From the NCBI RefSeq assembly GCF_003334405.1, contig NZ_QOWM01000065.1: a stretch of DNA of 427 bases; one strand, 5' to 3'. The stretch is from Escherichia coli. Lineage in GTDB: Bacteria; Pseudomonadota; Gammaproteobacteria; Enterobacterales; Enterobacteriaceae. Made by a program: the position numbers and the translations under genes. Positions 1 to 427 of the stretch are shown one piece after another. The notes below the pieces were generated by a model. The model was not told where the DNA came from, did not search any database, and saw only the letters and a list, made by a program, of their open reading frames with translations. Each line of letters begins with the position of its first letter. Within the stretch, counting starts at the first letter, position 1.

Positions 1-81
1 ACCATCACCGTTAACGCTGCTGGTAACGCGGAAAACACCGTCAAAAACATCGCATTTAACTATATTGTGAGGCTTGCATAA
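1..81 (+). CDS. stf: 3' end of a side tail fibre protein gene (5'-truncated by the window edge). Frame 1 reads [26 protein letters not shown] then stop at 79..81.
   Basis: Frame 1 is open from position 1 to TAA at 79..81. The C-terminal peptide ending ...[11 protein letters not shown] matches, from memory, the end of lambdoid side tail fibre proteins. A tail fibre assembly gene follows immediately downstream, which is the conserved stf-tfa order. The gene is absent from the ORF track only because it has no start inside the window. Confidence 0.8.
66..71 (+). promoter_or_regulatory. Shine-Dalgarno / ribosome-binding site for tfa (GTGAGG), located inside the last codons of the upstream tail fibre gene
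   Basis: The purine-rich GAGG core at 68..71 is 9 nt upstream of the ATG at 81, within the usual spacing for E. coli-type initiation. Called from sequence only. Confidence 0.55.
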
Positions 82-427
82 TGGCATTCAGAATGAGTGA
101 ACAACCACGGACCATAAAAATTTATAATCTGCTGGCCGGAACTAATGAATTTATTGGTGAAGGTGATGCATATATTCCGCCTCATACAGGTCTGCCAGCA
201 AACAGTACCGATATTGCACCGCCAGATATTCCGGCAGGCTTCGTGGCTGTTTTCAACAGTGATGAGGCATCGTGGCATCTCGTTGAAGATCATCGGGGTA
301 AAACGGTTTATGACGTAGCGTCAGGGGACGCGTTATTTATTTCTGAACTCGGTCCGTTACCGGAAAATGTTACCTGGTTATCGCCGGAAGGGGAGTTTCA
401 GAAGTGGAACGGCACAGCCTGGGTGAA
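81..427 (+). CDS. tfa: 5' part of a tail fibre assembly protein gene (3'-truncated; last complete codon ends at 425). N-terminal 115 aa: [115 protein letters not shown]
   Basis: ATG at 81..83 opens a frame with no stop to the window end. The N-terminus [51 protein letters not shown]... is recognisable from memory as the lambda Tfa family (lambda Tfa and the TfaE/TfaR/TfaQ-type paralogues of E. coli K-12 cryptic prophages). GAGG at 68..71 lies 9 nt upstream of the ATG. The gene is absent from the ORF track because its stop lies beyond the window. Confidence 0.9.

Follow-up and report, generated by a model that had tools for sequence, protein, structure and literature searches.

The window, a stretch of 427 bases from Escherichia coli (contig NZ_QOWM01000065.1), spans the place where a side tail-fibre gene of a lambdoid prophage meets tfa, the gene of the tail fibre assembly protein. 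The tfa frame contains two ATG codons close to its beginning, at positions 81–83 and 93–95 (MAFRM...). An earlier note, made from the letters alone, had pointed out these two codons and had placed them in one frame, which is confirmed by reading the letters and their translation; it had taken the first as the start but had considered the N-terminus ambiguous by four residues. From the evidence described below it is very probable that ATG 81–83 is the tfa start and that ATG 93–95 is an ordinary internal methionine codon (Met5). The features of the junction are as follows (coordinates in the window and strand, with the basis of each assignment in brackets):

1..81, + strand: 3′ end of the stf-type side tail-fibre gene, its last 26 codons, with stop codon TAA at 79–81 (translation; equivalent end of lambda orf-314/stf; RefSeq annotation of an identical locus)
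81..427, + strand: tfa, first 115 codons, encoding the N-terminal domain, Pfam Caudo_TAP_N, PF28596 (translation; homologues; Pfam; PHROG 105; AlphaFold2)
69..72, + strand: Shine-Dalgarno sequence GAGG for tfa, within the fibre codons GTG AGG for Val-Arg (anti-Shine-Dalgarno pairing; imm21 annotation; conserved in diverged loci)
79..83, + strand: TAATG, in which fibre stop and tfa start share one base (read directly; also in lambda and in diverged loci)
81..83, + strand: ATG, very probably the tfa start codon, Met1 (Shine-Dalgarno spacing; stop overlap; conservation of codon 3; existing annotation)
87..89, + strand: codon 3, TTC for Phe3 (conserved as protein, with synonymous codon variation)
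93..95, + strand: codon 5, ATG, very probably the internal Met5 at a hydrophobic position (residue variation among representatives; no Shine-Dalgarno sequence)
94..96, + strand: TGA in the fibre frame overlapping the second ATG as ATGA (unused here; fibre stop in the deletion variant L015/L016)

Of 5426 complete E. coli genomes, 4441 contain sequence similar to the window. The window DNA is 95.8% identical to positions 21893–22319 of phage lambda and 98.6% identical to loci annotated as tfaQ/tfaR. Lambda base 21973, the counterpart of window position 81, is annotated both as the last base of orf-314, which is the 3′ part of stf, and as the first of orf-194 (tfa, 21973..22557). In the RefSeq annotation of an identical E. 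coli locus the end of the fibre gene, there named "prophage tail fiber N-terminal domain-containing protein", and the start of the gene for a 193-amino-acid "tail fiber assembly protein" also share window base 81, so that the call of the earlier note, gene tfa with start at 81, agrees with both lambda orf-194 and RefSeq. The window thus carries lambda tfa or an allele of that gene, and the feature under study is ordinary and already known. As is characteristic of the Tfa family, tfa lies directly 3′ of the fibre gene on the same strand, and this order and orientation are also found in lambda and in at least ten diverged loci.

Translation signals at the junction

The sequence GAGG pairs with the 3′ end of the 16S rRNA with −5.6 kcal/mol and has a spacer of 6–8 nucleotides (nt) to ATG81. 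For ATG93, no anti-Shine-Dalgarno pairing better than −1.5 kcal/mol was found at spacers of 3–15 nt, and GAGG itself is 18–20 nt away. The view of the earlier note that the first ATG has the better-placed Shine-Dalgarno sequence is therefore correct. Its distances are correct as well, if it is considered that the given 9 nt is 81 minus 72, with 8 nt actually standing between G72 and A81, and that the given value of about 21 nt corresponds to 20 nt between G72 and A93. The same GAGG carries an annotation as the tfa ribosome binding site in the record of lambda imm21. In Salmonella phage SEN5, which has an unrelated upstream gene, a separate GGAG is located approximately 7 nt before the first ATG, and in locus L022 an AAGGAA is found 7 nt before the sole ATG.

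The strongest local signal, which is absent from the earlier note, is the overlap TAATG, in which the fibre stop TAA (79–81) and the ATG at 81–83 have one base in common. One-base stop/start overlaps of this type are an arrangement typical of translational coupling, and in this respect stf and tfa look like a translationally coupled gene pair. In lambda, 17 gene junctions have a stop/start overlap of 1 or 4 nt. TAATG is kept in lambda, in two diverged E. coli loci and in phage or metagenome loci with Tfa proteins that are 36–72% identical, and it is also present in loci L023 and L025. The junction AACTATATTGTGAGGCTNGCATAATG recurs in loci with Tfa proteins that are only 46–72% identical.

Two observations on the DNA around the overlap may be added. 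When window positions 41–83 are compared with the equivalent 40 nt in L007, L009–L013 and L023–L025, the last approximately 13 fibre codons and the junction turn out to be far better conserved in DNA than the region for the N-terminal domain of tfa, and in loci with Tfa 46–72% identical the DNA of 41–83 is nearly identical. Conservation of the ribosome binding site and of the fibre C-terminus would account for this, and so would a joint at which modules are exchanged by recombination. The other observation is that the fibre frame contains a second stop, TGA at 94–96, five codons past the TAA at 79–81, so that each of the two tfa ATG codons overlaps a fibre-frame stop. Every examined locus that has Met5 uses an AGY codon for Ser6, and this TGA is thereby kept, although common descent would account for AGY just as well.

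A second methionine this near to the first is no more than is expected by chance, in approximately 9–10% of genes: a Met in codons 2–5 is found in 7 of 72 annotated coding sequences of phage lambda (9.7%), the chance expectation being 9.2% from the internal Met frequency in lambda of 2.38%. Nor is there a conspicuous RNA structure. The predicted fold of positions 41–140 is no more stable than that of shuffled sequence (z = −0.14), and an Rfam search at E ≤ 1 gave no match. An RNA switch that chooses between the two starts was considered and was rejected because of the unremarkable fold.

Conservation of the N-terminal codons

The comparison of start positions across homologues, which the earlier note had suggested as a check, drew on 1513 relatives that were found among 1.84 billion cluster representatives. 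An alignment of the first approximately 115 residues (A2) contains 30 homologues with 35–66% identity to the window. All 30 have Phe3, and only 9 other columns are likewise invariant; at column 5 Met, Phe, Leu and Tyr occur. In a less selected tally of 80 representatives with short N-termini, anchored on the conserved strand TIKIY, 72 have a residue at the equivalent of Phe3, and in 67 of these it is Phe. The equivalent of Met5, present in 73 representatives, is Met in 51, Phe in 15, Leu in 3, Ile in 2 and Tyr in 2, and is thus not Met in 22. Only one representative of the 80 has MSEQPR as its N-terminus.

At the codon level, codon 3 alternates among loci between TTC and TTT, a synonymous exchange, and the flanking codons vary in the amino acid that they encode (Ala, Thr or Ser at codon 2 and Arg, Lys or Glu at codon 4). 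Since Phe3 is invariant or nearly so with only synonymous codon change, residues 2–4 are translated and Phe3 is under purifying selection. Four homologues have no Met5 (MKFEF..., MFEF..., MNTFTF... and MKFKY...). From the upstream stop as far as codon 25, their frame offers a single ATG, GTG or TTG, namely the ATG aligned with window position 81. The starts of these four are therefore unambiguous. At position 5, Met is lacking in locus L012 (MFTFS...) as well. The comparison thus favours ATG81 by a conserved Phe3, a replaceable position 5 and starts that are found only upstream, and it settles the four-residue ambiguity that the earlier note had left to the N-terminus.

Some database proteins have a tfa frame that is open far upstream, namely P0121 (443 amino acids), P0122 (686 amino acids) and P0123–P0125. 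In P0121 and P0122 the homology to the window starts exactly at Met1 (a Val followed by MAFRM). In P0123–P0125 an unrelated N-terminal sequence joins at about residues 17–19 (AGTNEFIG), which points to recombination breakpoints inside the gene.

The start is thus assigned to ATG81 because of the Shine-Dalgarno sequence and its spacing, the conserved TAATG overlap, the conservation of Phe3, the replaceability of position 5 and the existing annotation. Seen directly are the codons and the stop/start overlap, how strong the Shine-Dalgarno sequence is and how it is spaced, that Phe3 and the junction are conserved, and that Met5 can be replaced. The following course of events is proposed on this basis. 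tfa would be translated from the same late mRNA as stf. Since the stf stop overlaps the tfa start and GAGG is located inside the last stf codons, a ribosome that ends stf would already be on the tfa AUG and, by the established behaviour of such overlaps, would reinitiate there. Ribosomes that bind de novo would also be placed at ATG81. Coupling of this kind would tie the synthesis of Tfa to that of its client fibre. Phe3 may have a structural role.

Because residue 2 is Ala, Met1 is, by the known specificity of methionine aminopeptidase, probably removed, and the mature protein probably begins with Ala2 (AFRMSEQPR). By the same specificity, initiation at Met5 would probably give a protein with SEQPR as its N-terminus, the Met in front of Ser6 being cleaved off. 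The long and the short form of Tfa differ in mass by 505.25 Da (A+F+R+M). It should be noted in this connection that the earlier note had proposed that an N-terminal peptide MSEQPR would move the start to position 93. Such a peptide does not discriminate between the starts, because cleavage by trypsin after Arg4 releases MSEQPR from the longer protein as well. Finding MSEQPR in a tryptic digest must consequently not be counted as evidence for a shorter form of Tfa.

Alternative starts and the annotation of tfa

Several points weigh against ATG81 as the start. The predicted energy for opening the RNA is slightly lower around ATG93 (8.6 kcal/mol) than at ATG81 (11.1 kcal/mol), and a start 12 nt downstream would in principle also be within reach of terminating ribosomes. 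Throughout the close lambda-like clade Met5 is kept. Existing annotation is not uniform. ATG81 is the start in lambda orf-194 and in RefSeq annotations of both identical and diverged E. coli loci, and the alignment with PHROG 105 from residue 1 agrees with it. In the RefSeq record of the Salmonella phage SI7 (NC_049460.1, L010:301–315), however, tfa starts at the second ATG, despite the fact that the first ATG is present and overlaps the fibre stop. Likewise, ENA gene calls on junctions identical to that of the window start at the second ATG (L019:395–410; L020:203–218), and the cluster of ENA proteins with this start (P0032) has 436 member sequences. The inconsistency is real but trivial. In the searchable literature neither an experimentally determined N-terminus of Tfa nor usable data from profiling of initiation sites in lambda were found. 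Finally, some family members have as their first residue the equivalent of residue 12 (MKIY...), and gp38 of phage T4 aligns only from residue 11–12; the N-terminal peptide is therefore neither indispensable nor universal across the wider Tfa family.

The existence of shorter family members, together with the minority of automated gene calls and the one RefSeq phage record just mentioned, are the arguments that can be brought forward for ATG93 as the sole start, with 81–92 as an untranslated spacer. With purely synonymous variation in the codon of a conserved Phe3, with homologues that have no Met5 and must start upstream, with a stop/start overlap that is conserved at ATG81 and with the Shine-Dalgarno sequence too far from ATG93, this is extremely improbable. 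A use of both codons is considered very unlikely. Tfa would then be made in two isoforms of 193/194 and 189/190 residues, much as lambda gene S gives S107 and S105, or Met5 would take over as the start where the fibre/tfa junction has undergone recombination. For this speaks that in lambda itself gene S, annotated as S and S′, is a proven case of a dual start, that close relatives keep both Met residues, that ATG93 also overlaps a fibre-frame stop (ATGA) and that the region around it is slightly more accessible. Against it stands that ATG93 has no Shine-Dalgarno sequence at a working distance, that neither a significant RNA structure nor an Rfam match was found, that the distance between the two Met residues is as given by chance, and that 22 representatives have Phe, Leu, Ile or Tyr in place of Met5, as is the pattern for a hydrophobic side chain and not for a conserved start. 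Put more specifically, it is very unlikely either that ribosomes ending at the stf stop restart mostly at the overlapping ATG81 and to a fraction at ATG93, the latter giving a Tfa that is four residues shorter and lacks Phe3, or that Met5 is a spare start kept in the lambda-like clade to maintain tfa expression when ATG81 is lost by recombination or deletion at the highly conserved fibre/tfa junction. Minor initiation at ATG93 may occur, but nothing supports such a use.

A loss of ATG81 has indeed happened in nature. In two independent samples (E. coli GCA_012585295.1 and SRR4294805; L015:540–620 and L016:540–620, to be compared with L003:2478–3087) a deletion of 610 bp fuses the fibre gene after ...GQTFDKS (PSGYALMQGQTFDKS) to tfa at TCAGAATGAGTGA, from window-equivalent position 88 onward. 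In this variant, which lacks ATG81, the shortened fibre gene ends with the TGA overlapping ATG93, and the gene call for tfa begins at ATG93, as would be expected of a fallback start. The deletion has, however, also removed the C-terminal domain of the fibre (approximately 200 residues), and because of this loss it looks like prophage decay, not like design. A crossover site of a DNA invertase at the L015/L016 junction was considered by eye, no search for it being run, and was rejected, since BLAST indicates a simple deletion of 610 bp with an overlap of approximately 2 bp.

Initiation at ATG81 thus being by far the best-supported assignment, its biological weight is very low. That tfa exists, where it starts and that it is coupled to the fibre gene belong to the textbook features of lambda. 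The practical value is one of annotation hygiene: the public calls for this junction are inconsistent, and the comparison made here shows which one is right.

Neighbouring sequence, protein family and known systems

Open reading frames that overlap tfa out of frame are found at window positions 145–318 (+ strand, 57 amino acids) and 60–293 (− strand, 77 amino acids). The database protein P0258 (MNLLAKVMHIF...) resembles a gene call of the open reading frame in the +2 frame, and P0133 is a frameshifted tfa. All of these calls over tfa are most likely spurious. A hairpin that resembles a terminator, GCGTCAGGGGACGC followed by GTTATTTATT, lies at 318–341 on the + strand within the coding sequence of tfa; a terminator scan of the window gave this one site against 0.7 expected in shuffled sequences, which is chance level. 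A promoter scan of the window also gave only chance-level matches. In an identical E. coli prophage the region 3′ of tfa (L003:3782–6427) contains a manganese catalase, a ferritin-like pseudogene, a gene of the recombinase family (invertase-like) and more fragments of tail proteins, which suggests cargo genes and remnants of an invertible fibre segment.

The full protein, as encoded at the identical locus, matches PHROG 105 "tail fiber assembly" over residues 1–192 (E = 1.8e-100) and Pfam Caudo_TAP (PF02413) over residues 72–192 (E = 1.4e-44), and by these profile matches it belongs to the lambda Tfa-type family. The match to Caudo_TAP_N (PF28596) is precomputed on near-identical proteins. NCBIfam gave no family. 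A sequence search of the PDB with the N-terminal 115 amino acids gave no match, and with the full-length protein only the C-terminal part of TfaMu from phage Mu was found. The AlphaFold2 model of residues 1–115 has a mean predicted local distance difference test score (pLDDT) of 93.4, with strands from residue 10 on; the first ten residues are coil with a mean pLDDT of 81. The N-terminal peptide M-x-F-x-(M/F/L/I/Y)-S thus precedes a beta-rich N-terminal domain.

Chaperones of this family are modular, with a variable N-terminal domain that binds the fibre and a conserved, helical C-terminal domain that trimerises; for the relatives from lambda, Mu and T4 it is known that they bind the C-terminus of the fibre and are needed for the folding of the fibre trimer, and the chaperone of Ur-lambda is present in mature virions (PMC9608196). 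The tfa of phage lambda (orf-194, NP_040605.1) and tfaR/tfaQ of E. coli K-12 are the same gene as that in the window, with identical N-terminus, GAGG, TAATG junction and annotated start. More distant is the assembly protein U of the Mu tail fibre (TfaMu, PDB 5YVQ), which has in common with the window Tfa only the C-terminal Caudo_TAP region (E = 9.9e-10, residues 127–192). The distal long tail fibre assembly catalyst gp38 of phage T4 is homologous in its N-terminal domain, with 34.6% identity across residues 11–114 of the query. Lambda Tfa is reportedly able to substitute for T4 gp38, a finding that is attributed to work of Montag and Henning from 1987. Unlike the window Tfa, T4 gp38 and the short members of the family (MKIY...) do not have the M-x-F-x-M-S-... 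peptide at all.

The known system that comes closest with respect to the two ATG codons is lambda gene S (S107/S105), which, like tfa, is a late gene that begins with two in-frame Met residues a few codons apart (MKM... in S; MAFRM... in tfa). In gene S both starts are used under the control of an upstream RNA stem-loop. Of three testable features of this type of dual-start motif, tfa has one, the two in-frame starts a few codons apart. A ribosome-binding signal for each start, or an RNA structure that sets the choice between them, is absent, and the Met residues are not both conserved, position 5 being Phe, Leu, Ile or Tyr in 22 of 73 representatives. Unlike lambda S, tfa therefore has no second Shine-Dalgarno sequence, no significant structure and no conserved second Met.
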